This document shows, one piece after another, positions 407-59,089 of a DNA stretch of 64,000 nucleotides. The stretch covers positions 1,984,001 to 2,048,000 of the forward strand of contig NZ_JAQNDL010000001.1 in assembly GCF_028368995.1 (NCBI RefSeq), written 5' to 3'. Numbering within the stretch: the stretch's first letter is position 1; each line of letters starts with the position of its first letter. Below the pieces are notes generated by a model. That model did not search any database. It worked only from the letters and a program-made list of their open reading frames with translations, and was not told the DNA's origin. This DNA comes from Nannocystis bainbridge (GTDB lineage Bacteria; Myxococcota_A; Polyangia; Nannocystales; Nannocystaceae). A program made the translations under genes and the position numbers.

Positions 407-1078
407 ATGGGGACGAGCGACCTGAACTACCAGTGGGCGGTCCGGCGCCCGGCGTGGACAGTGCGCCAGGCCGGGGAGCTCGTACGCAACGTCGCCAATA
501 CCGTCGAGGACGCGTGCCAGGTGCACTTCCCGCCCTCGGAGGGCTTCCGCACCGAGGCCACCGAGCTGAACGGACTGATCGAGGGTGTGCGCCTGTCGGT
601 GTCCCGCGGCGAGTTCTCGGCGGTCGTCAGCGCCCAATGTTACGCCGAGAACCTATCCCTGGAGACATGTCCATCACGCCAGGTCGCGGTTCGCCTGGTC
701 GCCGCCCGCCGCGACGGCGCGCCGCCGCCACCGAGCGTGGTCCGCCTGGTCCAGATCGCCGGCCCGGTCGCCCTGCTGCTCGGGGTCAGCGCGCTGGTGT
801 TCGCGCTCATCTGCGCCGCCGCGGTCCCGGGCGTGGGCGGCTACTTCCGCCTGTCGCTATGGATGAGCTTCATGCTGATGATGGCCCCCGCGGTGGCCTG
901 GCTGGCGGGCGCCCGCACCTCGATGCAGCTCGAGGCCGTCGAGGCCAGCCAGTCGGCGCTGTCGACCCGCGTGGCCGCCCTCGCCGACGCCAACGCCCGC
1001 TGGCAACGCCTGCTCGCCGTGGTCCACGATCAGCAGGTGGTGGTCGCCCAGTACAAGGCGCTGCCGTTCCGCCGGTGA
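407..1078 (+). CDS. hypothetical membrane protein (two TM helices followed by a coiled-coil-like tail)
   Basis: ORF 254..1078, GC3-rich from ATG 407 (MGTSDLNYQW); two hydrophobic stretches. Confidence 0.7.
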   Translation: MGTSDLNYQWAVRRPAWTVRQAGELVRNVANTVEDACQVHFPPSEGFRTEATELNGLIEGVRLSVSRGEFSAVVSAQCYAENLSLETCPSRQVAVRLVAARRDGAPPPPSVVRLVQIAGPVALLLGVSALVFALICAAAVPGVGGYFRLSLWMSFMLMMAPAVAWLAGARTSMQLEAVEASQSALSTRVAALADANARWQRLLAVVHDQQVVVAQYKALPFRR

Positions 1079-1100
1079 GCCGGGCGAGGTTCGTGGTGCG

Positions 1101-1126
1101 ATGATATGTCCCTTTGGACATATCAT
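1101..1126. repeat. perfect inverted repeat ATGATATGTCC-CTTT-GGACATATCAT (member of the TGTCC-N4-GGACA family)
   Basis: 11-bp stem, 4-nt loop, between convergent genes. Confidence 0.85.
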
Positions 1127-1270
1127 CATGGTTTCGCTAGAAAATCTGAACACCTCGACCTGCCGAGGTCCATGCCGGTGGATGCTTCGCTGCTGCTTGC
1201 TGCGTCAGCCGACTGGCTCGAGCCGCGGCACGCTTGTTGTCGGAGCAGCGAGCTCCTGCTGTGAGCAGGA

Positions 1271-3776: not shown

Positions 3777-5693
3777 TCAGCAGTTGATCTTCACCAGCTT
3801 ACCATTGAGGATAAGCTGCTCGGTCGCAAGGACGCTGATGTTGCCGCCCGCGGCCAGGGTGATGTTGGCGGTCGCCGACACCGCGACGCTGCCCTCGGCG
3901 ATGATGAAGACGTCGGGCCCGTTGAGGACGATGCGCGCGGCCCCGCTGGTGACCTTGTAGAACGTGTCCTGCATGGTCGTGCCGGTCGCCGGCACGCTCG
4001 GCGGGGGCGTCGACGGCTGGGCGATCGTCACCGAGTGGACCGCGCCGACCAGGCACGAGTCGTTGCTGCCGATCGTCGTCGTGCGGTTGGAGCCGACCGA
4101 CGTGGTCAGGTTGGAGCCGATGGTTTCGGTGCAGTCGACGCCGACCGACTCGGTCATGTTGTTGAGGATCTGGGTGTTCCAGTCCTTCTGCGCGTGGAGG
4201 AAGATCTCCTCGGAGCCCTTGCGGTCCTCGAAGCGCAGCTCGTTGAAGCCGCCGCCGCCCGGCGAGCTGTCGCTCTTGATCGTGCTCTTCGTCTTCTCGG
4301 CCGGCAGCGGATACGGCGTGTCGTTGCCGCCGTGATAGATGCGGCCGATGACGATCGGTCGGTCCGGGTCGCCCTCGATGAAGTCGACCAGCACCTCGTG
4401 GCCGATCCGCGGCAGGAACATCGAGCCGTAGCCGTTGCCGGCCCAGGCCTGGCTGACGCGGACCCACGTCGTGCTGGTCTCGTTGTGCAGGCCCTCGCGG
4501 TCCCAGTGGAACTGCACGCGCACGCGGCCCTCGGCGTCGGTGTGCACCTCCTCGCCCTCGGGGCCGACCACCGTCGCGGTCTGCACGCCGCGCATGACCG
4601 GCCGCGGGGTCTGACGCGCCGGGCGGAACGGCAGCCGCAGCTCGGTCACCGTGAAGCGGTTGCGGTACTCGCTCGCGCCCGACTCGTCCTGGCCGAGCGT
4701 CTGCGGCTGGCTGCCGGTGTGCTCGACCTGGATGATGCGATACTCGGCGTTGAGCTCGTGCTTCGGGTGGCCCGCGAGGGTCATCGTGCGCCCCGCCGAC
4801 AGCCGCGGGCAGTCGCTCACGCCGGAGCCGAACCTGCGATGGGACTGCAGCTCCTCGAGCCGCGTCTTGGCCAAGAATTGGCCCTGATGCGGGCCGCCGC
4901 GCCCGGGCTCCTGGTACTCGCCCGGGAACTCGTAGACCTCGAGGTCGGTGTTGGTGCGGGCCGCCTCCTGGGCCTCGAGCCCGAGGTCGGGCCGGTGGAG
5001 GTTGAAGTCCCGCAGCGACAGCTTGCCGGGCCGCAGGCGCCCGCCGAAGCGGAACTCGTGCACGTGCTCGCGGTCCTGCACCGCCCCCGTCGGCGGGTTG
5101 TAGTCGACCGTCGGCGTGCCGTCGATCGGCTGGTGCGCCTGCACGTGGTCGGCCATCAGCCACACGTGCCGCGCCTCCTCGTGCTTGAAGTAATAGAAGA
5201 TCCCGTCCTCCTCGAGCAGCCGGTGGACGAACGCGAGGTCGGTCTCACGGTATTGCACGCAGTAGTTCCGCGGCCCGTACTCGGCGGTCAGGTTGAAGGC
5301 GAAGAAGTCGCGCGGGATCCCGGCCGCGACCAGCACGTCGGTCACGATCTGCTCGGTCGTCTTGTTCTGGAACACCCGGCAGCCCTCGCGCAGGGCCAGG
5401 CGGTGGGCCAGCGGCGCGATCGTGAGCTCGTAGAGCTGGTGGCTGCGCGTCTGGCCGACGTACTCGGCCTCGGTGACGATCCCCTGGACCAGCCGCGGCG
5501 CGTCCAGGGCCCGGATCTCGAGCAGCGCGGGCTGACCGAGCAGCGTCTCGGGGTCGAGGTCGAGGTCGGCGACCTCGACGTGGAACTCGAACAGGCTCGA
5601 GAGGGCCTCGCGCCCGGCCATTCGGACCACCCCCATCGGCGTCCCGGCGACCTTCAGCTCGAATACGGTGAGACGTGAATTATCGACAGTCAT
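3777..5693 (-). CDS. vgrG: T6SS spike protein VgrG/TssI (no evolved C-terminal domain)
   Basis: YCVQYRETDLAFVHRLLEEDGIFYYF, WVRVSQAWAGNGYG, PRIGHEVLVDFIEGDPDRP, NELRFED, HAQKD, short gp5-like repeats. Confidence 0.95.
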   Translation of the reverse strand: MTVDNSRLTVFELKVAGTPMGVVRMAGREALSSLFEFHVEVADLDLDPETLLGQPALLEIRALDAPRLVQGIVTEAEYVGQTRSHQLYELTIAPLAHRLALREGCRVFQNKTTEQIVTDVLVAAGIPRDFFAFNLTAEYGPRNYCVQYRETDLAFVHRLLEEDGIFYYFKHEEARHVWLMADHVQAHQPIDGTPTVDYNPPTGAVQDREHVHEFRFGGRLRPGKLSLRDFNLHRPDLGLEAQEAARTNTDLEVYEFPGEYQEPGRGGPHQGQFLAKTRLEELQSHRRFGSGVSDCPRLSAGRTMTLAGHPKHELNAEYRIIQVEHTGSQPQTLGQDESGASEYRNRFTVTELRLPFRPARQTPRPVMRGVQTATVVGPEGEEVHTDAEGRVRVQFHWDREGLHNETSTTWVRVSQAWAGNGYGSMFLPRIGHEVLVDFIEGDPDRPIVIGRIYHGGNDTPYPLPAEKTKSTIKSDSSPGGGGFNELRFEDRKGSEEIFLHAQKDWNTQILNNMTESVGVDCTETIGSNLTTSVGSNRTTTIGSNDSCLVGAVHSVTIAQPSTPPPSVPATGTTMQDTFYKVTSGAARIVLNGPDVFIIAEGSVAVSATANITLAAGGNISVLATEQLILNGKLVKINC

Positions 5694-7940: not shown

Positions 7941-7972
7941 AGCTGTCCTCAGAGCCAGGCGAGGCGGTCGCC

Positions 7973-10055: not shown

Positions 10056-10289
10056 CTACTTGCGCAGTCGCCGGAGCGGCGAGGCGTCCGCGGCCAGCCA
10101 GCGCTTGCCGTCCTTGGCGAACACCGCGCTCCCCGATCGCCGCGGCTCGACCGGCGGCTCGCAGGACGAAGACTTCAACGCCGCGCGGAGCTTCCGCCGC
10201 CGGCACCGGCTGTCACGCAGCCTGTCCTGCTTCTCGCTGCTCGCCGTGGTGACCGCGACCACCGGGTGCCGCTTGTAAGAACGTGCCAT
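10056..10289 (-). CDS. small basic conserved hypothetical protein
   Basis: MARSYKRHP...SEKQD...KDGKRW pattern of a widespread small Arg/Lys-rich family (recognised from memory); GAGG upstream. Confidence 0.65.
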   Translation of the reverse strand: MARSYKRHPVVAVTTASSEKQDRLRDSRCRRRKLRAALKSSSCEPPVEPRRSGSAVFAKDGKRWLAADASPLRRLRK

Positions 10290-10331
10290 CGGATCGCCTC
10301 TCAACATGTCCTTAGGAACATGTCCACAAGG

Positions 10332-12080
10332 TCAGCGCGACGTCGCCAGCGCGGCCGCGTCGGCGACCGGCTGCAGGACCACCCGCGCCAGCCCGCGCAG
10401 CAACGGCTCGCGGGCGATCACCCGCGCGAGCGGCGGGCTGTGGGCGTAGTAAAAGCGGACCAGGTCGACACCGGTCGGCGAGGCTTTGAGAAAATCGTCG
10501 CGGAACGCCCGCAGGGCCGCGACCTGGGCCGCCCACGGCGCGCCCCAGGCGGCGGTGGCGAGGAAGCAGAACGTGTCGACCGTCTGGAACTTCTGCGCCT
10601 CGGTGGTGATGTCCGCGGTCACCAGCGGGCTGCGGTTGGTGCACGCGTCCTCGTGGCGGACCGCGAACTGGTAGGTGTAATCGGCCCACAGCTCACCGAC
10701 CTCGACGCTCACCAGGCCCTCGGTGCGGCCCAGCTCGGCGGCGGAGAAGGTCGACTGGTGGGCCGCGCCGAGCAGCTCCTCGGTGAGCGGCGCGTTGCTG
10801 GCGATCGAGAACACGTGCACTTCCTTGAGCGCGATCGTCGGGTCGGCGGGCGGCGGCAGGCGAAAGCTGACCTGCACGCGATCGAACGACTCGCCGACCA
10901 GCGCGAGGTCCTCGATCGGCGCCAGCGCGTGGACCTGCGCGCACGAGCCCCAGCCGTCGCCGGGATCGCCGCCGGTCGTGCCGTCCGGACCGTCGGACTC
11001 GCCGCTGTCGCTGCCGCTCCCGCCGTCGCCGGTCGTGCCGCCCTCGCCCGGGCCGCCGTGCGAGTAGACGCCCCAGCGGAACGTCTCACCGTTCTTGCTC
11101 ATGAGCTTGAGGCGATCGGCGCCGCTGCCGTCGGCCGCGCTGATGGTCGGATCGGGCGGATGCAGCGCGCCGGTCGCCCCGTCCCAGTCGGCGTAGCCAG
11201 CGTAATCGACGGTGCCGCGAAAGCCCTGGGTGAACGGATCGAACGGCACGGCGTAGACCACCGAGGGCTGCCCGAGGTACTCGACGCCGTAGGCCGAGAG
11301 GTCGGGGTCGACATAATGATCGGCGTCGCGGTCGAAGCTGAAGGCCGAATTCTCGTCGGCCTCGACGCCGATCTCGAGGTAGGCCGTGAGCGGCGCCCCG
11401 GCCATCGCCTCGGGCGGCACCAGCACCGTCACGAACGCGGCCTGGTCGCCGGGCGGGGTCGCGGCCGTGACGGCGTCGAGGTCGTTGAGCGTCGCGTAGG
11501 TCTGGGTCTCCTCGGCGTCGAGCGCTGGGTCGAACGCGAGGATGTCGTTGCGCGGCGGGTACCAGCTGATGTCGCCCTCCGGATCGAACTGCCCCTTGTC
11601 CGAATTAAAGACCTTGGGCGAGGGGCAGGTCATGGTGTCGACGGCGACCGTCTCGTGCTCGGACGGCGACAGCGGCCGACAAAAGTAGGGCTCGTCCGAC
11701 GAGGTGTTCTCGTGAAAGCCGAGCGAGTCGAGGTCGCCAGGATCCTCGTCGTGAAGGATGATCTTCGGGTAGGTCTTGCCGCGCCGGTGAGCCCACACCG
11801 GCAGCACCGACACGCGCGGCCCGTACGGCGCGCGCCAGCTCGAGAGGAAGTTCCAGATCCCCGGCCGGTTGCCGATCCCGTACTTGCCGACCGCCTGGGT
11901 GACCATGACGTCCCGGACGTAATTGCCCTTGGCGTCCTCGAGCCAGATCGCAATCTGGGCGTTCTTCACCGGCGTGAAGTGAAACTCGACCAGCACCGGC
12001 TCGGCTGCTGCAGCGACGCGCACGGCCGACGTCGGCGCGAGCAGGAGCGCGGCGAGCAAGAGCGTCGGCGAGCGCGGCAC
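10332..12080 (-). CDS. secreted protein: DUF2271-like N-terminus, FN3-like region, CFI-box-CTERM tail
   Basis: Signal peptide; QIAIWLED..GNYV...LPVWAH; C-terminal CFLATAAWG...LRAFRD...FYY.HSPPLA. Confidence 0.8.
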   Translation of the reverse strand: MPRSPTLLLAALLLAPTSAVRVAAAAEPVLVEFHFTPVKNAQIAIWLEDAKGNYVRDVMVTQAVGKYGIGNRPGIWNFLSSWRAPYGPRVSVLPVWAHRRGKTYPKIILHDEDPGDLDSLGFHENTSSDEPYFCRPLSPSEHETVAVDTMTCPSPKVFNSDKGQFDPEGDISWYPPRNDILAFDPALDAEETQTYATLNDLDAVTAATPPGDQAAFVTVLVPPEAMAGAPLTAYLEIGVEADENSAFSFDRDADHYVDPDLSAYGVEYLGQPSVVYAVPFDPFTQGFRGTVDYAGYADWDGATGALHPPDPTISAADGSGADRLKLMSKNGETFRWGVYSHGGPGEGGTTGDGGSGSDSGESDGPDGTTGGDPGDGWGSCAQVHALAPIEDLALVGESFDRVQVSFRLPPPADPTIALKEVHVFSIASNAPLTEELLGAAHQSTFSAAELGRTEGLVSVEVGELWADYTYQFAVRHEDACTNRSPLVTADITTEAQKFQTVDTFCFLATAAWGAPWAAQVAALRAFRDDFLKASPTGVDLVRFYYAHSPPLARVIAREPLLRGLARVVLQPVADAAALATSR

Positions 12081-15220: not shown

Positions 15221-15335
15221 GCTGTCCGCGAGGACAGGTCCGCGAGCCTGCCCCTTGCGACATGCCCTTCGAGACATGCCCCGAAGCACATGCCCTCGGG
15301 AGCATGCCCGAACGAGCATGTCCCGGAGGACAGGC
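15221..15335. repeat. longest array of the 14-bp phased palindromic element (7 units in exact register)
   Basis: CCTG/CATG/CAGG cores at 15247, 15261, 15275, 15289, 15303, 15317, 15331; between convergent kinase and recN. Confidence 0.9.
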
Positions 15336-20209: not shown

Positions 20210-20262
20210 GGGCATGTCCCCTGCGACCTGCACGTTCGGACATGTCCTCAGGAGCATGTCTG
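20210..20262. repeat. 14-bp phased palindrome array
   Basis: Cores at 20213, 20227, 20241, 20255. Confidence 0.85.
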
Positions 20263-21709: not shown

Positions 21710-23673
<1,964 letters not shown>

Positions 23674-25008: not shown

Positions 25009-25032
25009 CGACATGTCCCCGAGGACATGTCC
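25009..25032. repeat. 14-bp phased palindrome (GACATGTCC-CCGA-GGACATGTCC)
   Basis: Cores at 25012 and 25026. Confidence 0.85.
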
Positions 25033-25580: not shown

Positions 25581-25655
25581 CGAAATGCCTTGAAGAGCAT
25601 GTCCTTCGGGACATATCCCACATGCCCGCCACGACATGTCCCTGGGGACATACCC
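25581..25655. repeat. two 14-bp phased palindrome arrays
   Basis: Cores at 25584/25598/25612 and 25621/25635/25649. Confidence 0.85.
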
Positions 25656-27505: not shown

Positions 27506-27556
27506 GCGCGCCTGTCCCTCGGGACATACGCCAAAACCTCGCGGAGGATCCGGCCC

Positions 27557-30085: not shown

Positions 30086-30136
30086 TGACATTCCCCTTCG
30101 GGCATGCCTGAAGCAGCATGTCCCAAGGGACATTCG
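30086..30136. repeat. 14-bp phased palindrome array
   Basis: Cores at 30089, 30103, 30117, 30131. Confidence 0.85.
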
Positions 30137-30252: not shown

Positions 30253-31767
30253 TCAGATCGCCGCTGGCAGGTCCCAGCTCTGGACCATCCCCTCCTGCGC
30301 TTGCAGCAGCTTCGCCGGCACGTAGTAAAGCTTGCCGCTCGGGCTCACCGCCACCCGGCCCACGTCCGGCATCATCGCGAACACCTCGAACACCCCGGTG
30401 AACGGCTCGATCGCCAGCACCTCGAGCGACGACATCGAGGCGTACACCAGTCCCGTGAACGAATCGTGGCTCAGCCCGGTCACGTGCGCACCCAGCTCGG
30501 TGACCGGCTCCGACAGCTGCGTCACCACGTTGTAGCGGAACAGCGCCCCGCCCTCGACCGCCACCAGCAGGTGCGCCGGGCTCACCGGCGCCGACGCCGT
30601 CACGCGCGCCGGGAAGTTGTGCACCACCGCCACCGTCGCCTGCTCGAGATCGGCCGTGTTGTACTCACCGTTCGCCGTGCTGTTGCCGACGTACAGCACC
30701 CGGTCCTCGCCCCACGTCAGCCCTTGCGGTCCCGCGTCGGCGACCGGCGCCATGAACGGCCCGCCCCCCATCGTCTCGGTCGCGGGGATGACGATCGGCA
30801 GCGGATTTATCGCGTCGTCCTCGACCAGGCGGGCGACGCCCTGGATGATGTCGCCGAAGCAGCCGCCGATGCACGTGTACGTGATCGCCACCTCGCCCAG
30901 CCCCTCGACCGGCTGCGGCGGCGGCACCGGCCCCGCGGCCACCGGCGGCACCTCGGTCAGCTGCGGGATCGTCAACCGCCGCAGCACCTTCACCTCGCCC
31001 ATGTCGAGGTTCGACACACCTGGCCATTCGGTCAGCTCGCCGTCCGGCCGCAGGCGCCGCAGATAGTCGGTCCCGCTGCGCAGCGTCACCATCCACGCGG
31101 TGCAGTCGTCGGCGAAATCGATGCCGATGATCTTCTCCGCGAACGGCCCGTTCAGCTGCTCGAGGCTCGGGTCCTGGCACTCCACCGGGCGGTCGCACGC
31201 GCACGCGGAGCCCCAGCACGCGCCGTCGCTCGTGCACGCCACTCCGGCGCACGGCGCCACCGGCACGCACGCGCCCTGGCCGTCGCACGCGCTGCCGGGG
31301 CCGCACTCGCGGTCGCCGCACGCCTCGCTCGCGCCGGCCAGCGTGCACGCGTCCGCGGGCGCGTGACAGCTGCCGGAGATGAAGTCACAGACCTGTCCCT
31401 CGGGACATGGATCGGGGCTCTGGCCCTGACACAGGGTCACGCACTGGTCGTCGACGCACTGCTGATTGGGCTCGCTGCAGGCCCCGCAGCCGGCCGGCGT
31501 GGTGGTGGCCGTCGCGCTGTCGGAGGTCGGCCCCGTCGTGCTCGAGGTCGAGGCCGCGGCGCTATCCGAGTCACCCTCGCTGGTGGTCGTCGGCGCCGTC
31601 GCCCCGGTGTCCGTGGTCGTCGCAGTCACCTCGCTCGCGCCGCTCGTCGGCGTCGTCGTCGGACCCGTCGTCTGCGTCGCCGACCCCGAATCGGCGCGCC
31701 CGTCGTCGCCGCAACCCGCCACGCCCGCGCAACCAATCAACCCGCCCAGAACCCATCGCTGCATCAT
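30253..31767 (-). CDS. lipoprotein with Cys-rich region and probable beta-propeller
   Basis: VAGC lipobox, T/S linker, Cys repeats, PQGLTW..D.VLYV blades. Confidence 0.75.
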   Translation of the reverse strand: MMQRWVLGGLIGCAGVAGCGDDGRADSGSATQTTGPTTTPTSGASEVTATTTDTGATAPTTTSEGDSDSAAASTSSTTGPTSDSATATTTPAGCGACSEPNQQCVDDQCVTLCQGQSPDPCPEGQVCDFISGSCHAPADACTLAGASEACGDRECGPGSACDGQGACVPVAPCAGVACTSDGACWGSACACDRPVECQDPSLEQLNGPFAEKIIGIDFADDCTAWMVTLRSGTDYLRRLRPDGELTEWPGVSNLDMGEVKVLRRLTIPQLTEVPPVAAGPVPPPQPVEGLGEVAITYTCIGGCFGDIIQGVARLVEDDAINPLPIVIPATETMGGGPFMAPVADAGPQGLTWGEDRVLYVGNSTANGEYNTADLEQATVAVVHNFPARVTASAPVSPAHLLVAVEGGALFRYNVVTQLSEPVTELGAHVTGLSHDSFTGLVYASMSSLEVLAIEPFTGVFEVFAMMPDVGRVAVSPSGKLYYVPAKLLQAQEGMVQSWDLPAAI

Positions 31768-32192
31768 CCCGCCGCTCTCCGGCGGCGAAGCTATCACTTC
31801 GCCGCGAGCGACGGCGCGCACCTGCGCTCGCGGACGGGCGCGTCTTTCTTACGGTTCACGGCGCCCTCGCAGCGGCGCTCCAGCCCGTCACCATCAGCAC
31901 GCGCCGACCACCCGTCATCGACCCTGCGATCCTCACCGTCGCGGCCTGCCTACTCGTCACGCTCGCCCCGAGGAGCCGCTCGCGTCCCCGGCGCACCCGG
32001 TCTCCGCGACCTGGCTCTTCGGACAGAATCATCCGCGACCGACCTCGCGAGCCCGCGCAGGGAAAATTGTCCCCGGGTCCTATGATGATCCCGCCCATCG
32101 CGGACCTCCTGCCGGCCGCCATTCTCGTGCCCAGCTTCCCCTCACGCGGCACCAACATGTCTCTTCGGACACTTCACGCGCAGACCCGGCCG

Positions 32193-33610: not shown

Positions 33611-35998
33611 ATGCCTCGCACTCGCTTCACGCTCCGCCTCACCCTCCCCGCCTTGTGGCTCGGCCTGTTCGGCGCGCCCGCGTGCGGCGACGACTCCGCC
33701 GCCATGACCGACTCCGCCGGCAGCGACACCGGCGGCCAGCCCGGCGAGCCTGGCGAACCGGGCCAGCCCGGTCAGCCCGGCCAGCCTGGCGAACCTGGCC
33801 AGCCCGGCGGCCCTGGCGATCCTGGCGACCCCGGTGATCCGGGGCAGCCCGGCGATCCCGGCGAGCCGGGCGACCCGGGCGAGCCTGGCGACCCCGGCCT
33901 CGACTTCGAACGGGCCCCGCGCTCGAGCGTCGTCGCCCTCCACTTCGCCGACGATCTCGGCACTGGCGCCGCCGACATCGCCGAGCTCGTCAAGACGCTC
34001 ACGGGACATGTCGCAACGGACAGCTTGCCGCCCGGCCTGCAGTTCCCGCTCGCCCCCGCCTCGACCGACACCGTGCGCGTCATCGCCGGCCTGCGGTCCA
34101 ACGTCCTCGTGCGCTGGCTCGACCCGCTCGGCCACGACGACCTGCCCGAATCGCCGCGGTTCGGCGCCAACAATGATTATATCGCCTACTTCGGCGACGG
34201 CTGGAACGACTCGCCCGAGAATGTCCCGCAGTGGCACGGCAGCGGCAGCGGCGCGTGGCTGTGGGTCAATCACGAGTACATCTCCGGCAGCAGCCCGACC
34301 AGCACCTCCGCGCCCGACGGCCAGCACCGCACCCTCGCCCAGTTCCTCCGCCGCCTCGAGCTGCTCGCCCTCGACATCGGCGGCGACCTCTGGGACGACG
34401 CCTCGCTCGTCACCTACGGCGCCGAGTACAAGCGGCAGGTCGGCGGCTCCTGGCTGCACGCCGTGCAGGACCCCGCCACCGGCGAGTGGGCCCTCGACCG
34501 CAGCCGCCCCGCCGTGCGCTACGACGCCACCAGCGCCACCCTCACCAAGATCACCGGCCTCGCGGGCCTCAGCAGCGACAAGGACGACGCCGGCGCCGAC
34601 CTGCCCGCGAATGTCGTGTCCGGCATCCTCGGCGACTGCTCCGGCGGCCAGACCCCGTGGGGCACCGTCATCACCGCCGAGGAGAACGTGCAGGACTATT
34701 ACGGCGACATGGAGACCTGCTGGAACGGCCAGCAGTTCGTCGCTGGCGCCGGCTGTGACGCCGGCCAGGACCTCACCTTCGAAGTCGTCGCCAGCGACAG
34801 CAGCGAGTTCGGCCGCTCGCCCGACGCCGACGCCAGCCACCCGCGCGACCTCTACGGCTACCTCGTCGAGATCGATCCGGGCGCGCCCGCCGACGAATAT
34901 TACGAGAAGACCACCCCCGGCGTCGGTCACCGCAAGCTCGGCGCCATCGGCCGCGCGCGCTGGGAGAACGCCACCTTCGCCGTCGACGATCAGTGGCGGC
35001 CGCTGGTCGGCGAGCCGCTCGTCATCTACGGCGGCGACGATCGCCGCAGCGGGCGGATCTTCAAGTTCGTCTCGAAAAATCCGTACACCGCCGGCATGAC
35101 GAAGGCCCAGGCGCGCGCGCTGCTCGACGAGGGAGACCTCTACGTCGCGCACTTCGCCGACCTCGACAACACCACCGGCACCGAGCTCGCCGGTGGCGTC
35201 GAGCCGACCGAGCAGAACCCTGGCCAGGGCGCGTGGATCCGCCTCTCCGTCGACAACACCAGCGACGACGCCCCCAACGCCGGCACCGCCGCCGGGCCGG
35301 CCGGCACCAAGGTCGGCGCCGCGCTGAAGTCGACCGAGTGGAACGCCATCGGTGGCTTGCCGACCGACGACGACGTGCGGCGGGTCCTGTTCACCAGCTG
35401 CAACAAGCTCGGGATCATGGAGCTCAACCGGCCCGAAGATCTCGAGTGGAACCCCAACGATCCGAGCGGCACTCCGCGGCTCTACGTCGCCTTCACCAAG
35501 CACGGCGGGCAGACCGCTCTCGACGGTGACGGCGTCCTGTTCGCCCCCGACGAATACGCCATGAACTCGCCCAAGCGCAGCGACGCCGTCGGCACCATCT
35601 TCGCCATGCAGGAGGCCGACCCGGCCAAGCCTGCCAGCTCCGCCAGCTTCACCTACTTCAAGGCCTTCCACGGCAGCGAGGGCGACGGTGTGTTCGACGC
35701 TGCCGACCCGGACAACCTCGTCATCGATCGCAGCGGCGGCGTGTGGTTCGGCACCGACGGCAACTTCGGCGTCAGCGGCCACGCCGACGCCGTCTACTAC
35801 CTCGACCTCGATCCGGCCCACAAAGCCGGTCAGCCTGGCGTCGTCACCCCCACGTGGGGCAAGGCCCTGCGCGTGGTCGCCGGTCCGAGCGACAGCGAGG
35901 CCACCGGCCCGGCTTTGAGCAGCGACATGCGCACGCTGTTCTTCTCGGTCCAGCACCCCGGCGAGGCCGTCTTCTCGACCTGGCCCGGCACCCCGTAG
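33611..35998 (+). CDS. phoX: PhoX-family alkaline phosphatase lipoprotein with collagen-like linker
   Basis: FGANNDY, WVNHEY, CSGGQTPWGTVITAEEN, GRARWE, NRPED, PDNL, EATGP, SVQHPG. Confidence 0.88.
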   Translation: MPRTRFTLRLTLPALWLGLFGAPACGDDSAAMTDSAGSDTGGQPGEPGEPGQPGQPGQPGEPGQPGGPGDPGDPGDPGQPGDPGEPGDPGEPGDPGLDFERAPRSSVVALHFADDLGTGAADIAELVKTLTGHVATDSLPPGLQFPLAPASTDTVRVIAGLRSNVLVRWLDPLGHDDLPESPRFGANNDYIAYFGDGWNDSPENVPQWHGSGSGAWLWVNHEYISGSSPTSTSAPDGQHRTLAQFLRRLELLALDIGGDLWDDASLVTYGAEYKRQVGGSWLHAVQDPATGEWALDRSRPAVRYDATSATLTKITGLAGLSSDKDDAGADLPANVVSGILGDCSGGQTPWGTVITAEENVQDYYGDMETCWNGQQFVAGAGCDAGQDLTFEVVASDSSEFGRSPDADASHPRDLYGYLVEIDPGAPADEYYEKTTPGVGHRKLGAIGRARWENATFAVDDQWRPLVGEPLVIYGGDDRRSGRIFKFVSKNPYTAGMTKAQARALLDEGDLYVAHFADLDNTTGTELAGGVEPTEQNPGQGAWIRLSVDNTSDDAPNAGTAAGPAGTKVGAALKSTEWNAIGGLPTDDDVRRVLFTSCNKLGIMELNRPEDLEWNPNDPSGTPRLYVAFTKHGGQTALDGDGVLFAPDEYAMNSPKRSDAVGTIFAMQEADPAKPASSASFTYFKAFHGSEGDGVFDAADPDNLVIDRSGGVWFGTDGNFGVSGHADAVYYLDLDPAHKAGQPGVVTPTWGKALRVVAGPSDSEATGPALSSDMRTLFFSVQHPGEAVFSTWPGTP
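33734..33898 (+). repeat. (Gly-X-Pro)18 collagen-like repeat
   Basis: GQP/GEP/GDP triplets with 9-bp periodicity. Confidence 0.9.
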
Positions 35999-36010: not shown

Positions 36011-37687
36011 ATGCTCCGCTCGCACCGCCCCGGCTTTCACCTCGCCTCTGCCCTCGCCCTGCTCGGCCTCGTCGCCGTGCAGTGGTGGCTGCCCGCGCGC
36101 GCGAGCTCCGAGGCCGCGGCAGCGCCCGCGCATGTCCCAGACCCGTCGTACGACCCGCTGGCCGTCGCGCGCGCCGCCGGCTCGCGCGTCGACAACCTCG
36201 AGGCCTCGATCCCCCCGCAGTGTTACACGCGGACCGGCGCGACCTCGAACCCTTGCTTTGCCTGTCATACTGCCTCGCAAGATCCGAACGGCATGAACGA
36301 CTGGCACCTCCAGCAGGAGTACGCCTTCTCGGACGAGGGTCGCCTCAATCACTGGACCAACCTCTTCGTCGATCGGCGCCCGGCGATCGCCGCCATCGCC
36401 GACGACGACATCCTCCGCCACGTGCGCGAGGACAACTACGGCCCGCTGCGCGCCGCCCTGCGCGATCGGCCCGACTTCCCCGGTTACGCCCCCGACCTCG
36501 ACCTCGCCGCCGGCTTCGGCCCTGACGGCCTGGCGCGCGACGGCAGCATGTGGCGGACCTACGCCTACAAGCCGTTCGTCGGCGCCTTCTGGCCGACCAA
36601 TGGCAGCACCGGCGACGCCTTCGTCCGCCTGCCCGAGACTTTTCGGACATGTCCCGAAGGACATGTCTCCGAGGCCATCTACAAGATCAACCTCGCCGTG
36701 CTCGAGGCCGCCGTCGCCGGCCCGGCCAAGCCGCCCGCCGGGTTCGCCTGGCCGACCGAGCCGCTCGACGAGCGCAGCGTCGGCGTCGACCTCGACCGCG
36801 ACGGTCGGCTCGCCACCGCCACCGTCCTGCGCGGCCTGCCCACCCATTACTTCGGCGGCGCCGCGCGGCGCCCGGTGCGCCGCGGCGTCTACCCCGAGGG
36901 CACCGAGTTCTTGCACAGCGTGCGCTACCTCGACCCCGACGCGCCCGGCCTGCTCGCCGCGCGCATGAAGGAGCTGCGCTACGCGAAGAAGGTCGACGAG
37001 CTCGATCGCTGGGCCACCCAGCGCGCCTACGAAGAGGAGTTCGACAGCCGCCAGGAGGGTCAGCTGCCGCGCTGGCGCGGCTCGCCCGAGGTCGGCCTGC
37101 TCGGCGATTTCGGCTGGCAGCTGCAGGGCTTCATCGAGGACGAGCGGGGCCGCCTGCGCCTCCAGACCGCCGAGGAGCACCGCTTCTGCATGGGCTGTCA
37201 CAACGGCATCGGCATCACCGTCGACCAGACCTTCTCGTTCCCGCGCAAGCTCCCGGGCGCGTCCGGCTGGAAGTACCAGGACCTGCGCGGCACGAGCGAC
37301 GTGCCGGCCGCCGGCCACGCCGAGCCCGAGTACCTCACGTACATGCGCCGCGTCGGCGGCGGCGACGAGCTGCGGGCCAACGACGAGATGCTGGCGCGCT
37401 TCTTCCCCGGCGGCGCCCTCGACGAGGCCGAGGTCCGCCGCGCCGCCCCCGGAGGCGACCGCGACCTCGCCTGGCTGCTCGCCCCCTCGCGCGCCCGCGC
37501 CCTCGCGCTCGACAAGGCCTACCTGCTGATCGTGCGCGAGCAGTCGTTCACCCGCGGCCGCGACGCCACCCTCGCCCCCGCCGCCAACGTCCACCGCGAG
37601 ATCGGCAGCAAGACCACCGAGCTGGCCGCCGCCGAGACCCGCTGGCTCGACGCCCGCCTCCAGCTCGCCTGGCCCGCGACGCCGTGA
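36011..37687 (+). CDS. exported protein with two CxxCH motifs (putative diheme c-type cytochrome)
   Basis: CFACH and CMGCH; N-terminal hydrophobic segment; starts 12 bp after phoX. Confidence 0.75.
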   Translation: MLRSHRPGFHLASALALLGLVAVQWWLPARASSEAAAAPAHVPDPSYDPLAVARAAGSRVDNLEASIPPQCYTRTGATSNPCFACHTASQDPNGMNDWHLQQEYAFSDEGRLNHWTNLFVDRRPAIAAIADDDILRHVREDNYGPLRAALRDRPDFPGYAPDLDLAAGFGPDGLARDGSMWRTYAYKPFVGAFWPTNGSTGDAFVRLPETFRTCPEGHVSEAIYKINLAVLEAAVAGPAKPPAGFAWPTEPLDERSVGVDLDRDGRLATATVLRGLPTHYFGGAARRPVRRGVYPEGTEFLHSVRYLDPDAPGLLAARMKELRYAKKVDELDRWATQRAYEEEFDSRQEGQLPRWRGSPEVGLLGDFGWQLQGFIEDERGRLRLQTAEEHRFCMGCHNGIGITVDQTFSFPRKLPGASGWKYQDLRGTSDVPAAGHAEPEYLTYMRRVGGGDELRANDEMLARFFPGGALDEAEVRRAAPGGDRDLAWLLAPSRARALALDKAYLLIVREQSFTRGRDATLAPAANVHREIGSKTTELAAAETRWLDARLQLAWPATP

Positions 37688-37688
37688 G

Positions 37689-37736
37689 CGACGTGCTCTT
37701 CAAGACATGTCCATGCAGACATGTCTCGAAAGACTA
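37689..37736. repeat. 14-bp phased palindrome array between convergent genes
   Basis: Cores at 37692, 37706, 37720. Confidence 0.85.
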
Positions 37737-41707: not shown

Positions 41708-42031
41708 CGCGCGAGTGTGCCCCGGCTGCGCCCCCCGGCCAAGCGAAATCACCGCCCGCCCGCAGCCCTCGCAGGCCCCGCAGGAGGCGTCCAGGAGCCG
41801 AACCGCGGGTCCGTTGCAGATCGCGCATGGACCTCGGGTCGGGCCACGCCCCACGCGTCCACGCCGCGATCCCTCGCGCGCCGACACCTCCGCGCCCGCC
41901 CGCGTTCGGAGTCCCCGGAACTGCCTGTCTCTTCGGCCAGATTACATGTCCTTTCAGACACCCTATCCGGGCACGCCGCAAGCTGACCGTTCGGACATGT
42001 CCCTCGGCACCGCCCGGCGATCGCCGGCGCC

Positions 42032-42982: not shown

Positions 42983-43384
42983 CCTGCCTCCATCGGCGCG
43001 CAACCTACCACGCCGCCGTCCCAGCCTCCAGACCCCTGCGCGCCCGCCGGGCGGCCATACGCCTGTCCTGAAGTACAGGTCAATATTTGGGTCCTGCTGC
43101 CAATCGCGCGAATGGAATCACTCACCGCCAGGTTGAACTCGCCGAGAGATCGAGCCGCCGCGCCCCGAGGGTGCTCGCCCCATGGGCCACCCCATGCGGT
43201 CGCCCCATGGGGCCGGCTCCTTCCGCGCTCGCTTCGTGGCGCCCTCGTGTCGACATCGCAGGGGTTTCGCCGCGGCGTGTCGCTTGCTGAAAGCGCGACC
43301 GAGCCCGCGGCCGTCGCCGCGCTCGGGCCCGGCCCGAATGCGACGACTCCCCGAACTCGGCTCAAAAGGGAGTACTGTCGATCC

Positions 43385-44872: not shown

Positions 44873-44930
44873 CCTGCGGCGCGGGCCCCGGCCGCGCCGG
44901 CGGGGCCCGGTGAGCGAGCGAGGTGACGTA

Positions 44931-44962
44931 GTTCGGGCATGACCTTCGGGACATGCCCGAAC
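44931..44962. repeat. extended palindrome GTTCGGGCATGACC-TTCG-GGACATGCCCGAAC (14-bp family)
   Basis: Cores at 44938 and 44952; between convergent genes. Confidence 0.85.
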
Positions 44963-44970
44963 AGTCAGCC

Positions 44971-46338: not shown

Positions 46339-46732
46339 GAACAACCCTCCTGCGGCAGTGATATCGCCGAGCACACCCGACGATCGTCCCACGCCCGCGA
46401 GAATGCAAGGAGGAGCGTCGCCCCCAACCCTCTGCAAATGTCGGCCGCCGAGCAATGCGGCGATCCTTGCACATGTCCCGAGGGACATCTGATTCTCCAC
46501 CGGCTCCCGCGCCGCAGCGCCGCTCGCGTGACCACGCACTCGAGCGCCTCGCCCGCCCCGCTCGCGCCATCCTCCCTCGGCGCCACCGGTCCTCGCCGCC
46601 GTCGTGATGACAGTGCCCGTCGCGCCGGCGCGTCCTCGCAGCCCCCTGCCACCCTGCGTCGGCCCGTTGTTCCGCCGCACAGGTGCGGCCCGACCGCCCG
46701 GTTATGCACAGCAGACTGGGGAGGCGAAGGCG

Positions 46733-50208: not shown

Positions 50209-50226
50209 GCTGTCCTTCGGGACAGC
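50209..50226. repeat. palindrome GCTGTCC-TTCG-GGACAGC (14-bp family)
   Basis: Immediately follows the PLD stop codon. Confidence 0.8.
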
Positions 50227-52702: not shown

Positions 52703-52705
52703 GCC

Positions 52706-54850: not shown

Positions 54851-55905
54851 TCGTCCAGCCCGGCCCCGACGTCGAGCGCCGCGAGCTGCTCGCCGTCGCC
54901 TTCCACAACTACCCCCTCGACGACGCCCTCGTCGCCTGCCAGATCCCCATCGGCACCCCCGGCGGCGCCGCCGTCATCTCCTACGAGAACGCCCTCTGCT
55001 CGCTCCACGTCGACGAGCACGGCGCCGCCATCCGCGAGCTCATCACCGACGTCGTCCCCGCGATCGCCCCCGGCGACCTCGCCCCGGTCCACCCCGCCGT
55101 CCCGGGCCCGGTCTGCACCTACCTGCAGAGCCGACGCATGATCCGCTACGACCTCGCGGCCCACGCGACCCGCCAGCTGCGCATGCTCCACGGCGACAAC
55201 ACCCTGCTCGCGGGCGCATGGCTCTCGGGCCAGGAGACGCGCCTCGCCGTGCAGGTCGAGGACACCAGCCGCTACGACGACGGCGGCCTGGTGCTCGGGC
55301 GCATCGAGGTGTTCGACCTCGCCACCGACCGCCGCCTCGGCGCCGCTCCGCTGCCGCGGGCCCGCGACGCCGGCCAGGGCTGGGCGGCCGGCGCCGACAT
55401 CGTGGCGATCGCCCAGAATGGCGGCCTGGCGGTGTTCACCGCCGATTTCGCCCTGCTCATCGAGCACCCGCTGACCCGCGCCGCCCGGGACGCGCTCGCC
55501 GAGGCTGGCGCGTCCGAGGTCCACTCCTTGCGGATCCACCCCACGCAGCCGCTCGCGGTCCTCGCCGCCTGCACCGCCGACACGATGGGCGTCCGCGACT
55601 TCACGCTCCACCGGATCACGTGGAGCGCGACCGGCAGCTTCGAGGTGCGCCGCCTGGCCAAGCTGCACGCCGTCGGCGACGTCGGCTTCGGCGCGTTCGC
55701 CCCCGCCGGCGACGCCCTCGACGTCCGCATCGCCACCGGCGGCGTCACCTGGATGATGCTCGCCGTCGGCCCGCACGCGCTGCTCGACCTCGGCCCCTCG
55801 CGCGGCCTGCAGGGCGCCGGTTGGTCGGGCCCGCGGCGGTTCCTCGCGTTCGAGCGCGGCGCGGCCCAGATCGCCGTATGGAACCTGCCCGAAGGGACAG
55901 CATGA
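54847..55905 (+). CDS. putative immunity protein (beta-rich, unassigned)
   Basis: GTGA overlap with the effector and ATGA overlap with the next gene; GC3-biased frame. Confidence 0.65.
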   Translation: MIVQPGPDVERRELLAVAFHNYPLDDALVACQIPIGTPGGAAVISYENALCSLHVDEHGAAIRELITDVVPAIAPGDLAPVHPAVPGPVCTYLQSRRMIRYDLAAHATRQLRMLHGDNTLLAGAWLSGQETRLAVQVEDTSRYDDGGLVLGRIEVFDLATDRRLGAAPLPRARDAGQGWAAGADIVAIAQNGGLAVFTADFALLIEHPLTRAARDALAEAGASEVHSLRIHPTQPLAVLAACTADTMGVRDFTLHRITWSATGSFEVRRLAKLHAVGDVGFGAFAPAGDALDVRIATGGVTWMMLAVGPHALLDLGPSRGLQGAGWSGPRRFLAFERGAAQIAVWNLPEGTA

Positions 55906-56740: not shown

Positions 56741-56782
56741 GTTCGGACATGTCCCTTGTGGCATGTCCGAACGGACATGCTC
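56741..56782. repeat. 14-bp phased palindrome array between convergent genes
   Basis: Cores at 56748, 56762, 56776. Confidence 0.85.
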
Positions 56783-56802
56783 TAAAATACAGGTGGCCCC
56801 GC

Positions 56803-58313: not shown

Positions 58314-58364
58314 AACTTACGCTGTAAGTTGACCGCCAGAAGAGTAAAGCTTACACCGTAAGTT
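58314..58364. promoter_or_regulatory. two TetR operators CTTAC-N3-GTAAG overlapping divergent promoters
   Basis: AACTTAC-GCT-GTAAGTT (58314-58330) and AGCTTAC-ACC-GTAAGTT (58348-58364) abutting the tetR ATG; TTGACC at 58329. Confidence 0.8.
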
Positions 58365-59066
58365 ATGGCAAGCACGAAAGCGCCGAAGCGGGCCCAGACC
58401 CGCCGCAAGCCGGCCCGGCGGGCCCCGCTGAGCCGCGAGCGGGTGCTCGCCACGGCCATCGAACTGGCCGACGCCGAGGGCCTCGAGGCGCTGTCGATGC
58501 GCAGGCTCGCGCAGGCGCTCGGGGTCGAGGCGATGTCGCTCTACAACCACGTGAAGAGCAAAGAGGACGTGCTCGACGCGATGGTCGACCTCGTGATCGG
58601 CGAGATCGAGGCGCCCGCGATCGGCGGCGACTGGAAGGCCGCGCTGCGTCGGCGCGCCGTCTCGGCCCACGCGGTCCTGATGCGCCACCGCTGGGCCCCG
58701 CAGCTGGTCGTGTCGACCCTCAACATCGGCCCGGCGATGCGCCGCTACGTCGACGCCACCCTCGGCTGCCTGCACGCCGCCGGCTTCTCCTACGCCGAGG
58801 CCGACCACGCCTGGAACGCGCTCGACAGCCACATCTACGGCTTCACCCTGCAGGCCCTGAACTTCCCGCTCGAGCCCTCCCAGTACGCCGGCGCCGCCGC
58901 CCAGTTCCTCCACCTCATCCCGCCCGAGCAGTTCCCCCACATGCACGCGCTGTCCCTGCTGGTCATCGACGGCGAACACGACGGCCTGCAAGACTTCACG
59001 TTCGGCCTCGATCTGCTGCTCGACGGCCTCGAGCGGCTGCTCGGCGCCAAGAAGCCGGCGGTCTAG
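58365..59066 (+). CDS. TetR family regulator (TetR_C type)
   Basis: LSMRRLAQALGVEAMSLYNHVKSK HTH; F.FGL.LLLDG. Confidence 0.93.
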   Translation: MASTKAPKRAQTRRKPARRAPLSRERVLATAIELADAEGLEALSMRRLAQALGVEAMSLYNHVKSKEDVLDAMVDLVIGEIEAPAIGGDWKAALRRRAVSAHAVLMRHRWAPQLVVSTLNIGPAMRRYVDATLGCLHAAGFSYAEADHAWNALDSHIYGFTLQALNFPLEPSQYAGAAAQFLHLIPPEQFPHMHALSLLVIDGEHDGLQDFTFGLDLLLDGLERLLGAKKPAV

Positions 59067-59067
59067 C

Positions 59068-59089
59068 TCCGCGTCCGCGTGGACGCGGA
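59068..59089. terminator. hairpin TCCGCGTCC-GCGT-GGACGCGGA between convergent genes
   Basis: 9-bp stem with no U-tract; resembles the GTCC-N4-GGAC family. Confidence 0.45.

Follow-up and report, generated by a model that had tools for sequence, protein, structure and literature searches.

The genome of Nannocystis bainbridge is populated by a 14-bp dyad, TGTCC-N4-GGACA, which tiles in exact phase, accumulates at the 3' ends of genes, persists at the same loci in related species and has arms kept by sequence rather than by pairing. We give a probability of roughly 45% to the reading that the dyad is a double-stranded DNA site which would be read by a symmetric dimer and is repeated with a 14-bp period at the 3' ends of genes. 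Though similar to REP, HIP1 and DUS, the dyad is a member of none of these groups. No description of the motif was found in the literature searched, including that on palindromic repeats of Nannocystis or other myxobacteria (main texts, with few subscription journals); the repeat family is apparently undescribed, as the original prediction had supposed.

Exact copies of TGTCCNNNNGGACA were counted in the window, that is, the whole stretch of 64 kb analysed, and in 100 dinucleotide-preserving shuffles of it: the window holds 13 copies, the shuffles averaged 0.02 and never held more than one, and the clusters first noticed by eye are real. The genome-wide count proposed with them gave the same answer: 1,987 exact units and only three of the reversed pattern are present in the 11,048,555 bp of the genome. 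A profile score of at least 10 was reached by 10,823 units, compared with 596 in the reversed genome, and these approximately 10,800 units make up about 1.4% of the DNA of the 11-Mb genome. The over-representation amounts to tens to hundreds of fold, both in and between reading frames.

A free 4-bp core makes the unit bipartite, in contrast to the contiguous short palindromes of the HIP type. Its spacing is strict: genome-wide, 1,987 units have a gap of 4 bp, 16 a gap of 3 bp and 5 a gap of 5 bp. The unit begins with TG and ends with CA almost without exception, and at inner arm positions 4 and 9 the commonest one-base deviants are C>T and G>A. As originally described, conserved arms enclose a free spacer, whose entropy is 6.7 of 8 bits; position 1 of the spacer avoids A, position 4 avoids T and the centre is A+T-rich. 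The spacers TTCG, CGAA, CTCG and CGAG, said to occur often, are indeed among the commonest, but jointly they account for just 316 of 2,151 3'-UTR units.

The 14-bp phasing seen in the window extends to the whole genome: 3,736 CATG-CATG distances fall at 14 bp, compared with 72 at 13 and 262 at 15, and harmonics follow at 28 (2,073), 42 (1,584) and 56 bp (742). The control tetramers CGCG, GATC and GGCC showed codon periodicity alone. Because the tiling is exactly 14 bp, three units span four helical turns, and tiling increases as motif abundance rises. The junction between tiled units, GGACATGTCC, was considered as the true unit and rejected: just 75 of 956 junctions occur without a flanking unit. 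In isolated units the flank preferences reach past the 14-mer, with R-C-[C/A] on one side and [G/T]-G-Y on the other; taken with the preferences at the spacer edges they define a dyad of about 20 bp, which was derived by pooling both sides, so that its symmetry is assumed.

All 26 positions listed in the original prediction carry a unit with at most two arm mismatches, which starts 2 nt after the CATG-like core quoted. The unit counts given for the larger arrays hold as well: seven at 15247, the unit at 15223 included, and three to four at 20213. The main occurrences are collected in Table 1. The array at 56750 forms one long palindrome, because its outer spacers are reverse complements. The first vgrG cassette ends with a gene at 1271-3763 (minus strand), and the unit at 1107 is found shortly downstream of it.

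Table 1. Units of the dyad in the window and their surroundings (positions in nt of the window).
Position	Units	Location and relatives
1107..1120	Exact unit inside longer palindrome (12-bp stem, -18.2 kcal/mol)	Convergent junction
7944..7957	One degenerate unit with 2 mismatches in the arms	32-bp convergent gap 7941-7972
10307..10334	Two tiled units	Convergent gap 10279-10331
15223..15332	Largest array of the window: one exact unit and six tiled at exactly 14 bp	Fills gap between convergent Ser/Thr kinase and SMC_N/AAA genes
20215..20256	Three-unit array	Start of long gap 20123-20817
23419..23446	Two units	In type I HsdM methylase reading frame; loop variable among homologues; same place in five relatives
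25014..25027	Exact unit	12 nt past hsdS stop codon; kept in 4/5 relatives, spacers changed
25586..25650	Two tiled pairs (25586-25613, 25623-25650)	Tandem gap; arrays of relatives differ in unit number and spacers
27513..27526	Exact unit	Right after stop codon; kept in 5/5 relatives, flanks diverge
30105..30132	Two tiled units, second exact	Gap 29855-30252
31394..31407	Exact unit	In cysteine-rich reading frame (30253-31629, minus strand); arms kept, spacer variable in four relatives
32158..32171	Single unit, one mismatch	Gap 31630-32192
34009..34022	Single unit, one mismatch	Inside PhoX-like reading frame 33611-35998
36650..36677	Two units, weaker third flanking	Inside reading frame 36011-37687, which stays open
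37694..37721	Two tiled units	Fill 49-bp convergent gap 37688-37736
41926..42011	Loose four-unit cluster (starts 41926, 41947, 41984, 41998)	Gap 41708-42031
43064..43077	Single unit, one mismatch	Divergent gap
44940..44967	Two tiled units	Convergent gap 44873-44970
46474..46487	Single exact unit	Divergent gap
50211..50224	Exact unit	Starts 3 nt past stop codon, upstream of second vgrG gene
55886..55899	Single unit, one mismatch	End of second vgrG cassette
56750..56791	Three tiled units	Fill convergent gap 56736-56802

Genes were located with a crude caller of our own (84% coding), which erred at least once in the window. Unit density between genes was found to be about eight times that inside predicted genes, and it depends on the type of gap: 3.03 units per kb in convergent, 1.13 in tandem and 0.43 in divergent gaps. 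Eight of the ten largest arrays are convergent in location, and in tandem gaps the preceding stop codon is the nearer neighbour of a unit (median distance 79 nt versus 183 nt). Among convergent gaps of 44-450 bp, about two-thirds (782 of 1,183) carry a unit, and 272 of these 782 have no unit-free stretch of 44 nt. The statement that nearly every convergent junction carries a copy was therefore too strong: 8 of 12 do so in the window and, by the strict pattern, 657 of 1,474 in the genome. The reported gaps in the distribution stood in part. No unit scoring at least 11 lies between 1121 and 7943, a span that includes the first vgrG cassette, or past 56791, but one weak match is located inside the second cassette (53021) and one unit scoring at least 9 occurs at 60365, within the 59.1-63.6 kb interval said to be free of copies.

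Exact units are intergenic in 1,170 of 1,987 cases and lie wholly inside predicted genes in 800 (about 40%), two examples being in genes supported by Pfam; the original prediction had made no mention of copies within reading frames. The GC3 phase is unchanged across units within genes (0.915 for single units versus 0.974 for controls), and neither 14- nor 28-bp units put the reading frames, which remain open, out of phase. These copies occupy variable, indel-prone spots: the 14-mer is interrupted by an alignment gap in 46% of cases, compared with 18% of controls. An origin as a peptide motif was rejected, the encoded peptides being diverse and the commonest occurring four times.

Comparison of orthologous intergenic regions showed that the relative is occupied at 45 of 49 regions occupied here and at 9 of 75 unoccupied here; for regions with a single unit it is occupied in 10 of 11 comparisons. 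Equal unit counts were found in 12 of the 45 shared occupied regions. Identity between species is 0.63 for the arms, 0.49 for the spacers and 0.57 for the flanks. For coding units, one relative showed better conserved arms (approximately 0.96 versus 0.90, 21 units); in the other this excess was absent (approximately 0.91 versus 0.90, 13 units).

The pairing of the arms was analyzed in arrays and in isolated units. In arrays, mirrored arm positions gave observed/expected Watson-Crick ratios of 0.98-1.03. In isolated units (n=3,415), eight of nine mirrored pairs showed no excess pairing, the exception being the -1/+14 flank pair, with a ratio of 1.17-1.25. Arm covariation is absent: the arms are kept by sequence rather than by pairing. 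Downstream of genes the spacers have no transcribed-strand bias, TTCG being found 90 times and CGAA 89 times, CTTC 84 times and GAAG 78 times.

These observations bear on the possibility that the units act as hairpins of RNA or single-stranded DNA which, in a genome with few U-tailed terminators, would end transcription in both directions or protect the 3' ends of mRNAs. The proximity of units to stop codons and the occupied or entirely filled convergent gaps would fit such a role, as would predicted folding: arrays are stable as RNA on both strands (z of -4.5 and -5.4) and extended single units also fold well on both. Canonical U-tailed terminators were not enriched in the 20 kb from 13000 to 32999 (6 versus 3.8 expected), none of these six terminator-like sites coincides with a unit, and other strong hairpins are somewhat less frequent in short occupied convergent gaps (8.6% versus 18%; 37% versus 51%). 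In longer gaps, however, other hairpins are equally frequent. A terminator does not need identical arms recurring thousands of times, its stems would be expected to covary and its loops to show a strand bias, a lone 5-bp stem is weak, and some 40% of exact copies lie within reading frames. Unlike intrinsic (Rho-independent) terminators, the units do not consist of a GC-rich stem and a U tract, and Rfam 15 gave no match at gathering score in the 64-kb window. Sequencing runs searched for RNA data yielded just metagenome contigs, in which 5-11% of the sampled words were present. A hairpin function is, in our judgement, quite unlikely.

Alternatively, the units could be REP-like: selfish or domesticated mini-palindromes, spread or regenerated by an enzyme other than a RAYT, which accumulated where they did least harm and acquired a 3'-end role later. 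REP/BIME sequences and REPINs, with their RAYT transposases, are found in enterobacteria and Pseudomonas, and like the motif they are short, clustered palindromes of hundreds to thousands of copies, located mostly at gene 3' ends and convergent junctions, each kind being restricted to one species or genus. A history of this kind agrees with the order of densities (convergent, tandem, divergent), with unit numbers that vary by species at the same locus, with the indel-prone spots of in-gene units and with an abundance that varies up to about 100-fold among related genera, and also within one of them (genus 4, see below). Recent tandem duplication is evident in some arrays, whose spacers are near-identical, and neighbouring units share the same spacer 103 times where 46 cases are expected. 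Against it, PF01797 (Y1 transposase; RAYT, IS200/IS605-like) was found in none of 11 Nannocystis genomes, the present one included, compared with 6 of 14 control genomes. A RAYT-driven REP was rejected on this ground, and the 800 exact units inside genes do not match the extragenic location of REPs either. Two-unit haplotypes are nearly all unique (2,821 of 2,849 distinct), so that there are no master copies surrounded by near-identical populations; neither target-site duplication nor conserved edge was seen at the units; recent gains and losses are few (4 of 49 and 9 of 75); and frames remain in phase across the units. In structure, too, REPs are different: they are imperfect palindromes of about 20-40 bp kept as hairpins, whereas the unit here has just 14 bp, a free 4-bp core, exact-phase tiling and arm pairing at chance level. 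We regard a REP-like origin as unlikely.

The distribution of the motif among genomes is graded. Exact units number 333-2,090 per genome in genus 1, 67-696 in genus 4 and 87-169 in genus 2, and 0-20 in the remaining genera, against controls of 0-10. Enrichment is thus limited to three genera of the family and strongest in Nannocystis; at least 12 genera lack the motif. Such clade specificity is shared by the DUS of Neisseriaceae and the USS of Pasteurellaceae, asymmetric 9-12-mers acting in DNA uptake. The motif could likewise be a tag of 'self', preferred by an uptake receptor or recognition system and spread by biased uptake and recombination with no benefit at each site. Its density of about 0.9 units per kb (17.7 per 20 kb on contig 1) is close to the one copy per kb of DUS and USS, which also differ between genera, occur in genes and at terminators and are scarce in foreign DNA. 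In agreement with this, the motif occurs in and between genes, its in-gene copies occupy variable segments and low-GC 20-kb bins are depleted (4-9 units below 70% GC versus 22-26 above 72%; rho 0.51). However, uptake sequences are not known to be palindromic or to tile in phase, as the dyad does, and the variance/mean ratio of the units per 20 kb, 3.8-5.9, indicates overdispersion. We hold an uptake tag to be improbable.

Other systems share some features with the motif. In the met-boxes of MetJ, one of the ribbon-helix-helix repressors with tandem operator boxes, short palindromic boxes abut head-to-tail and each binds one dimer that contacts its neighbours; met-boxes, unlike the motif, number a handful per genome. 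The dRS3 elements of Neisseria (dRS3/NIME) have conserved short inverted arms, a variable core, hundreds of copies and intergenic arrays; they are 20 bp long with an 8-bp core, flank longer repeat blocks and are a target of phage integration, and neither flanked blocks nor such a target were seen for the motif. CRISPR repeats of about 23-47 bp alternate with unique spacers of about their own length and form few arrays, unlike thousands of loci with 5-bp arms, a 4-bp core and a 14-bp period. The analogy with matS, NBS, SBS and ram sites, suggested in the original prediction, fits poorly by number: these count tens of sites, compared with about ten thousand here.

HIP1 of cyanobacteria, GCGATCGC, is described in two reports as a contiguous 8-mer tied to cognate methyltransferases, over-represented tens to hundreds of fold in and between reading frames and retained between genomes, with a proposed role in chromosome structure (PMC5861425, PMC4390886). 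The motif resembles HIP1, as portrayed there, in being a hyper-abundant palindrome in and between frames that is retained between genomes; it differs in its bipartite form with a free core, in its tandem arrays and in having no methylase that tracks it among the classes surveyed (C5 and D12). It could be an inert by-product of sequence-specific modification and repair, in which near-matches are converted to matches by biased repair; the C>T and G>A deviants at positions 4 and 9 would fit this. Yet neither Vsr nor a C5 methyltransferase was found in the genome itself, and methyl-directed repair as proposed for HIP1 was rejected. A single D12-class methylase is present family-wide (59 of 61 genomes), irrespective of motif load, and therefore does not track the motif. 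Repair bias also leaves the exact 14-bp tiling unexplained, and we hold this origin to be very improbable.

Taken together, the evidence favours a symmetric, sequence-specific reader of double-stranded DNA over the REP or UUCG-hairpin alternative, given that arm covariation, spacer strand bias and a RAYT are all absent; to this extent the dimeric protein originally suggested gains in plausibility. Reading by a protein, cooperative binding and the action of bound arrays are what we infer from the pattern of the sites. The core TGTCC-N4-GGACA and its flanks would constitute a recognition site of about 20 bp, and the putative reader would be a symmetric homodimer specific to the three-genus clade. 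Sites could overlap and tile exactly every 14 bp because the arm of the neighbour (..ACA / TGT..) would provide acceptable flank bases. Adjacent dimers would then coat the arrays that fill convergent gaps, and the coated arrays may be boundary elements at gene 3' ends that either halt transcription, by roadblock or termination, or form a topological barrier; single sites would persist where sequence can change freely, including the variable linker segments of proteins. The distribution is compatible with a transcription-boundary role at 3' ends. A more elaborate version, which we put forward as tentative and on balance doubtful, is that an abundant, clade-specific dimeric protein polymerises on the tiled sites of convergent ends, forming thousands of boundaries that stop read-through or confine supercoils, and that dispersed sites, those in genes included, mark 'self'. 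CdbA, a nucleoid protein of a myxobacterium, has a preference for sequence and hundreds of sites in and between genes (PMC7156744). As the reader CdbA of Myxococcus was rejected, its motif there being a GC-rich direct repeat with 4-bp separation and not a dyad.

Some observations speak against the dimer reading. Around 10,000 sites would need a very abundant protein, and the arms are just modestly better kept than the flanks (0.63 versus 0.57). The order of convergent, tandem and divergent gaps is also expected from tolerance of inserted or selfish DNA, and the predicted RNA folding of arrays and the somewhat lower frequency of other strong hairpins in short occupied gaps would fit an RNA-level role.

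A genome that devotes about 1.4% of its 11 Mb to one 14-bp dyad, kept by sequence in three related genera, and in which this dyad fills most gaps between convergent genes without a RAYT, a cognate methylase or a U-tailed terminator among the hallmarks tested, is a clean case for how and why bacteria maintain hyper-abundant short palindromes, a question partly answered for REPs and still to be answered for HIP1. With the motif present in three genera and missing from at least 12, comparative genomics together with pulldown could find the reader. For Nannocystis, known as a source of natural products, the arrays will in practice affect assembly, primer design and the annotation of 3' ends.

Two further occurrences were followed up. 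In the Mesorhizobium matches from a public scan, the pattern is a coincidental part of another palindrome, which is long and perfect. In a low-copy relative, the motif was considered as the boundary of a duplicated 9-kb segment, and this was rejected, as the motifs lie inside the segment and not at its ends. The genes adjoining this segment encode proteins without a Pfam family and an AbiEi/AbiEii pair.

Exact matches to TGTCC-N4-GGACA occurred 13 times in the window, far above the 100 dinucleotide-preserving shuffles (mean 0.02, maximum 1). In the assembly containing the window (11,048,555 bp in five contigs, G+C 71.5%) the pattern was counted 1,987 times, compared with 3 times when read backwards. 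When up to two arm mismatches were allowed, 68 matches were found in the window, and a unit lay at each of the 26 positions listed in the original prediction, offset by 2 nt (from the CATG-like core to the T of TGTCC). Genome-wide, 3,736 CATG-to-CATG distances measured 14 bp, against counts of 72 and 262 for 13 and 15 bp, with harmonics at 28, 42 and 56 bp; the control palindromic tetramers CGCG, GATC and GGCC displayed the 3-bp codon rhythm only. A position weight matrix derived from the arrays, used with a cut-off score of at least 10, identified 10,823 units in the genome and 596 in the reversed genome. Chained into arrays, the units occupy 157,990 bp, approximately 1.4% of the genome. These counts confirm both the motif and its 14-bp phasing.

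One genome from each of 185,579 species was scanned for the exact two-unit form. The matches came from Nannocystis-titled records and, besides these, from three single chance-like sites and an unrelated palindrome of Mesorhizobium. The latter was ruled out as a family member: a perfect palindrome of ~44 bp, CCCCCCTCTGTCCTGCCGGACATGTCCGGCAGGACAGAGGGGGG, present in many species of that genus (L037, L039, L041, L045 and 10 further loci), contains the pattern by coincidence and seems to be a distinct family of REP or MITE type. Within the Nannocystaceae the core 14-mer was enriched in three genera, with 333-2,090 copies per genome in Nannocystis (genus 1), 67-696 in genus 4 (7 of 7 genomes) and 87-169 in genus 2 (5 of 5 genomes). 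Genus 26, with 5-20 copies, barely exceeded the reversed controls (0-10), and the other thirteen genera had 0-11. The extended isolated form showed the same genus distribution, and tiling tracked abundance: the present genome has 311 tandem matches among 1,987 units, a genus-4 genome with 696 units has 82, and the genus-2 genomes have 0-3. The observation made in one window therefore extends to a clade. A tag for DNA uptake or self-recognition, spread by molecular drive, is an improbable explanation of the repeat.

The layout of the unit is CA/TG-Y-C-C-NNNN-G-G-R-CA/TG, slashes marking its ends. Among one-mismatch variants the terminal TG and CA were almost never altered, the third base of each arm tolerating most change, and the distance from TGTCC to GGACA was strict (1,987 at 4 nt, 16 at 3 nt, 5 at 5 nt). 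The junction palindrome GGACATGTCC was ruled out as the basic unit: 75 of 956 junctions lacked a flanking unit and 888 of the 1,987 exact 14-mers had no CATG on either side, indicating that the 14-mer is the basic unit, since few junctions stand alone and many 14-mers do. Isolated units prefer R-C-[C/A] before and [G/T]-G-Y after, which suggests that the site reaches ~20 bp, its symmetry being assumed because the preference was derived with both sides pooled. A neighbour's arm supplies ..ACA, which matches this preference and makes exact abutment possible. The spacer is nearly random (246 of 256 tetramers occur; entropy 6.7 of 8 bits), its first base avoiding A, its last base avoiding T and its centre being A+T-rich.

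If a hairpin were important, mirrored arm positions would co-vary, and this was not observed. In 1,670 array triplets the Watson-Crick observed/expected ratios were 1.01, 1.03 and 0.98 at the three variable arm pairs. Among 3,415 isolated units excess pairing was absent in eight of nine mirrored pairs, the exception being the first flank pair (ratio 1.17-1.25). Mirrored complementary changes in two-mismatch variants (596 of 7,530) showed no excess over the reversed control (321 of 3,152). In gaps between co-directional genes the strand of transcription is known; there, each spacer tetramer 3' of a gene was about as frequent as its reverse complement (TTCG 90, CGAA 89; CTTC 84, GAAG 78; CTCG 75, CGAG 62), indicating that stable UUCG-type loops are not selected on the RNA strand. 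The C-UUCG-G hairpin family, which the original prediction had offered as its alternative, is thus the less favoured idea. As RNA, arrays have stable predicted folds whichever strand is transcribed. A minority of arrays have reverse-complementary spacers at a two-unit distance (52 times versus 17 expected), which turns the whole array into one long palindrome (see table). A role as hairpin terminators or RNA stabilisers would fit the lower frequency of other strong hairpins in convergent gaps that are short and occupied (8.6% versus 18%; 37% versus 51%), but longer gaps showed no such difference, and we consider this role distinctly unlikely. The U-tailed terminator was rejected as the identity of the unit, since none of the six terminator-like sites in 13000-32999 coincided with one, and no Rfam family was matched in the window.

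Gene positions were taken from our own codon-usage caller, by which 84% of the genome is coding; all location figures depend on it, and it erred at least once in the window. Of the exact units, 1,170 were intergenic, 17 lay across a gene boundary and 800 were inside predicted genes, with densities of ~0.68 per kb in intergenic sequence versus 0.086 per kb in genes. Arrays of at least five units were intergenic in 271 cases, partly so in 67 and within genes in 11. By a strict degenerate pattern, elements were found in 657 of 1,474 convergent, 786 of 4,434 tandem and 174 of 1,497 divergent gaps (3.03, 1.13 and 0.43 elements per kb of gap, respectively). Convergent gaps of 44-450 bp contained a unit in 782 of 1,183 cases, 272 of these 782 having no unit-free stretch of 44 nt. 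Elements in tandem gaps lay at a median of 79 nt from the upstream stop codon versus 183 nt from the next start codon, and eight of the ten largest arrays were convergent. The claim that nearly every convergent junction carries a copy holds as a preference, but its wording was too strong, since 8 of the 12 convergent junctions in the window bear units. Unit density (~0.9 per kb) was similar across all contigs and rose with local G+C (Spearman 0.51; 4-9 per 20 kb below 70%, 22-26 above 72%), in agreement with the earlier impression that few if any copies lie in the vgrG cassettes or the final 5 kb.

Features of the window, with strand where applicable
Position	Strand	Feature	Remarks
1271-3763	-	Gene	Called in error as 1758-3026 (+)
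3777-5693	-	VgrG (Phage_GPD, Gp5_C, Phage_base_V)	Cassette almost repeat-free; followed by an 830-aa protein, kinase-like match weak
15207-15340		Array region, predicted RNA folding	-67 and -82 kcal/mol on the two strands, z -4.5 and -5.4
15223-15332		Array	One exact unit, then six more at exact 14-bp tiling
20330-20620		Several tandem copies of a different ~55-60 bp repeat (…CCGCGGCCTCRTGCYTCAG…)	In long gap 20123-20817; sequence differs in relatives compared
21710-25002	+	Type I restriction-modification pair	HsdM (N6_Mtase, HsdM_N), then HsdS (Methylase_S); units in both frames
25014, 27513		Single units 3' of stop codons	Arms kept, spacers changed, in four to five species
27880-27925		Convergent junction without repeat	Ordinary long GC-rich hairpin (GCCACGACCCGCG…CGCGAATCGTGGC), conserved in relatives
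28985-29015		A+T-rich palindrome TGTTCT…AGAACA around GAGACATAT	Near-invariant in six Nannocystis species, surrounding intergenic DNA variable; looks like a separate operator-type site outside the 14-mer family
33611-35998	+	PhoX-type alkaline phosphatase	Collagen triple-helix repeat region at N terminus
50573-54850	+	VgrG (Phage_GPD, Gp5_C, Phage_base_V)	Cassette almost repeat-free; followed by a PAAR-amidohydrolase fusion
56750-56791		Array	One long palindrome through reverse-complement outer spacers

Thousands of copies, no pairing constraint, a fixed 4-bp core and exact tiling together call for something that reads a specific sequence in duplex DNA. The putative reader, most simply a homodimer, would recognise the 14-mer in double-stranded DNA; the 14-bp spacing would set successive dimers 120 degrees apart round the helix, three units making four turns. 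Arrays at convergent gene ends would be coated by the reader, and the coated arrays may serve as boundaries that limit transcription or supercoiling. We give this reading a probability of about 0.45, the boundary function by itself being considerably less probable. A dimeric DNA-binding protein, preferred in the original prediction, is thus the best supported of the readings, yet unproven. The repeat offers a tractable route to identifying its putative reader.

Between the Nannocystis species compared, genes are 75-94% identical and intergenic sequence is near-scrambled. Gaps occupied here were also occupied in the relative in 45 of 49 comparisons (10 of 11 for single-unit gaps), and gaps unoccupied here were occupied there in 9 of 75. 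Unit number was equal in 12 of the 45 occupied gap pairs, and identity around 113 aligned units was highest in the arms (0.63), lower in the flanks (0.57) and lowest in the spacers (0.49). Nearly all two-unit haplotypes were distinct (2,821 of 2,849), indicating that whole units are not copied around the genome. A self-propagating REP-like element, driven by some enzyme, is unlikely; the RAYT-type REP was ruled out, as no Y1 transposase was found in any of 11 Nannocystis genomes and control genomes gave matches. Identical adjacent spacers were found 103 times versus 46 expected, a few arrays being plainly recent tandem duplications. Local duplication thus seems to lengthen the arrays, the spacers then drifting while the arms are held. 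In two of the genomes compared (G007 and G005; L007/L011, L006/L013), the gap orthologous to 20123-20817 shows the 14-mer motif in a second arrangement: single units of the form TGTCTCTCGRGCCA recur at intervals of ~65 bp, and each lies within a longer block that is itself repeated.

The repeat belongs to an established class, that of hyper-abundant short palindromic repeats, and its architecture is unusual. It does not fit the HIP1 repair model: Vsr and C5 methylase were not found in this genome, and the sole D12 methylase does not track motif load. The gene for this D12-class adenine methyltransferase (G000:C1:3591256-3592293, L147) occurs in 59 of 61 Nannocystaceae genomes at any motif load, a distribution resembling that of a core orphan methylase. 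An origin as a repair by-product is very improbable. The CdbA motif of Myxococcus was also rejected as the identity of the unit. No published description of the motif, or of Nannocystis or myxobacterial repeats like it, was found in the literature searched, most subscription journals lying outside it.

The third-position G+C phase did not change across 91.5% of 2,293 single and 90.5% of 231 double in-gene units (97.4% for random in-gene positions). Inserting 14 or 28 bp and nothing else would alter the phase, and wrongly merged genes therefore do not account for the in-gene units. Two units of the window lie in HsdM, in a loop variable among solved homologues, and others in the PhoX-like gene and two other open frames; the peptides encoded by in-gene units are diverse. 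In a comparison of 82 in-gene units with one genus-4 relative (~72% nucleotide identity), controls were coding positions picked at random from the alignments used. A gap lay within 44 nt of 57% of units versus 34% of controls (Fisher p = 3e-5), and flank identity was 0.67 versus 0.72, indicating that these units sit where the protein tolerates change. Among ungapped in-gene units, 8 of 44 were also a unit in the relative, so that most either arose after the genera split or have disappeared from the relative's lineage.
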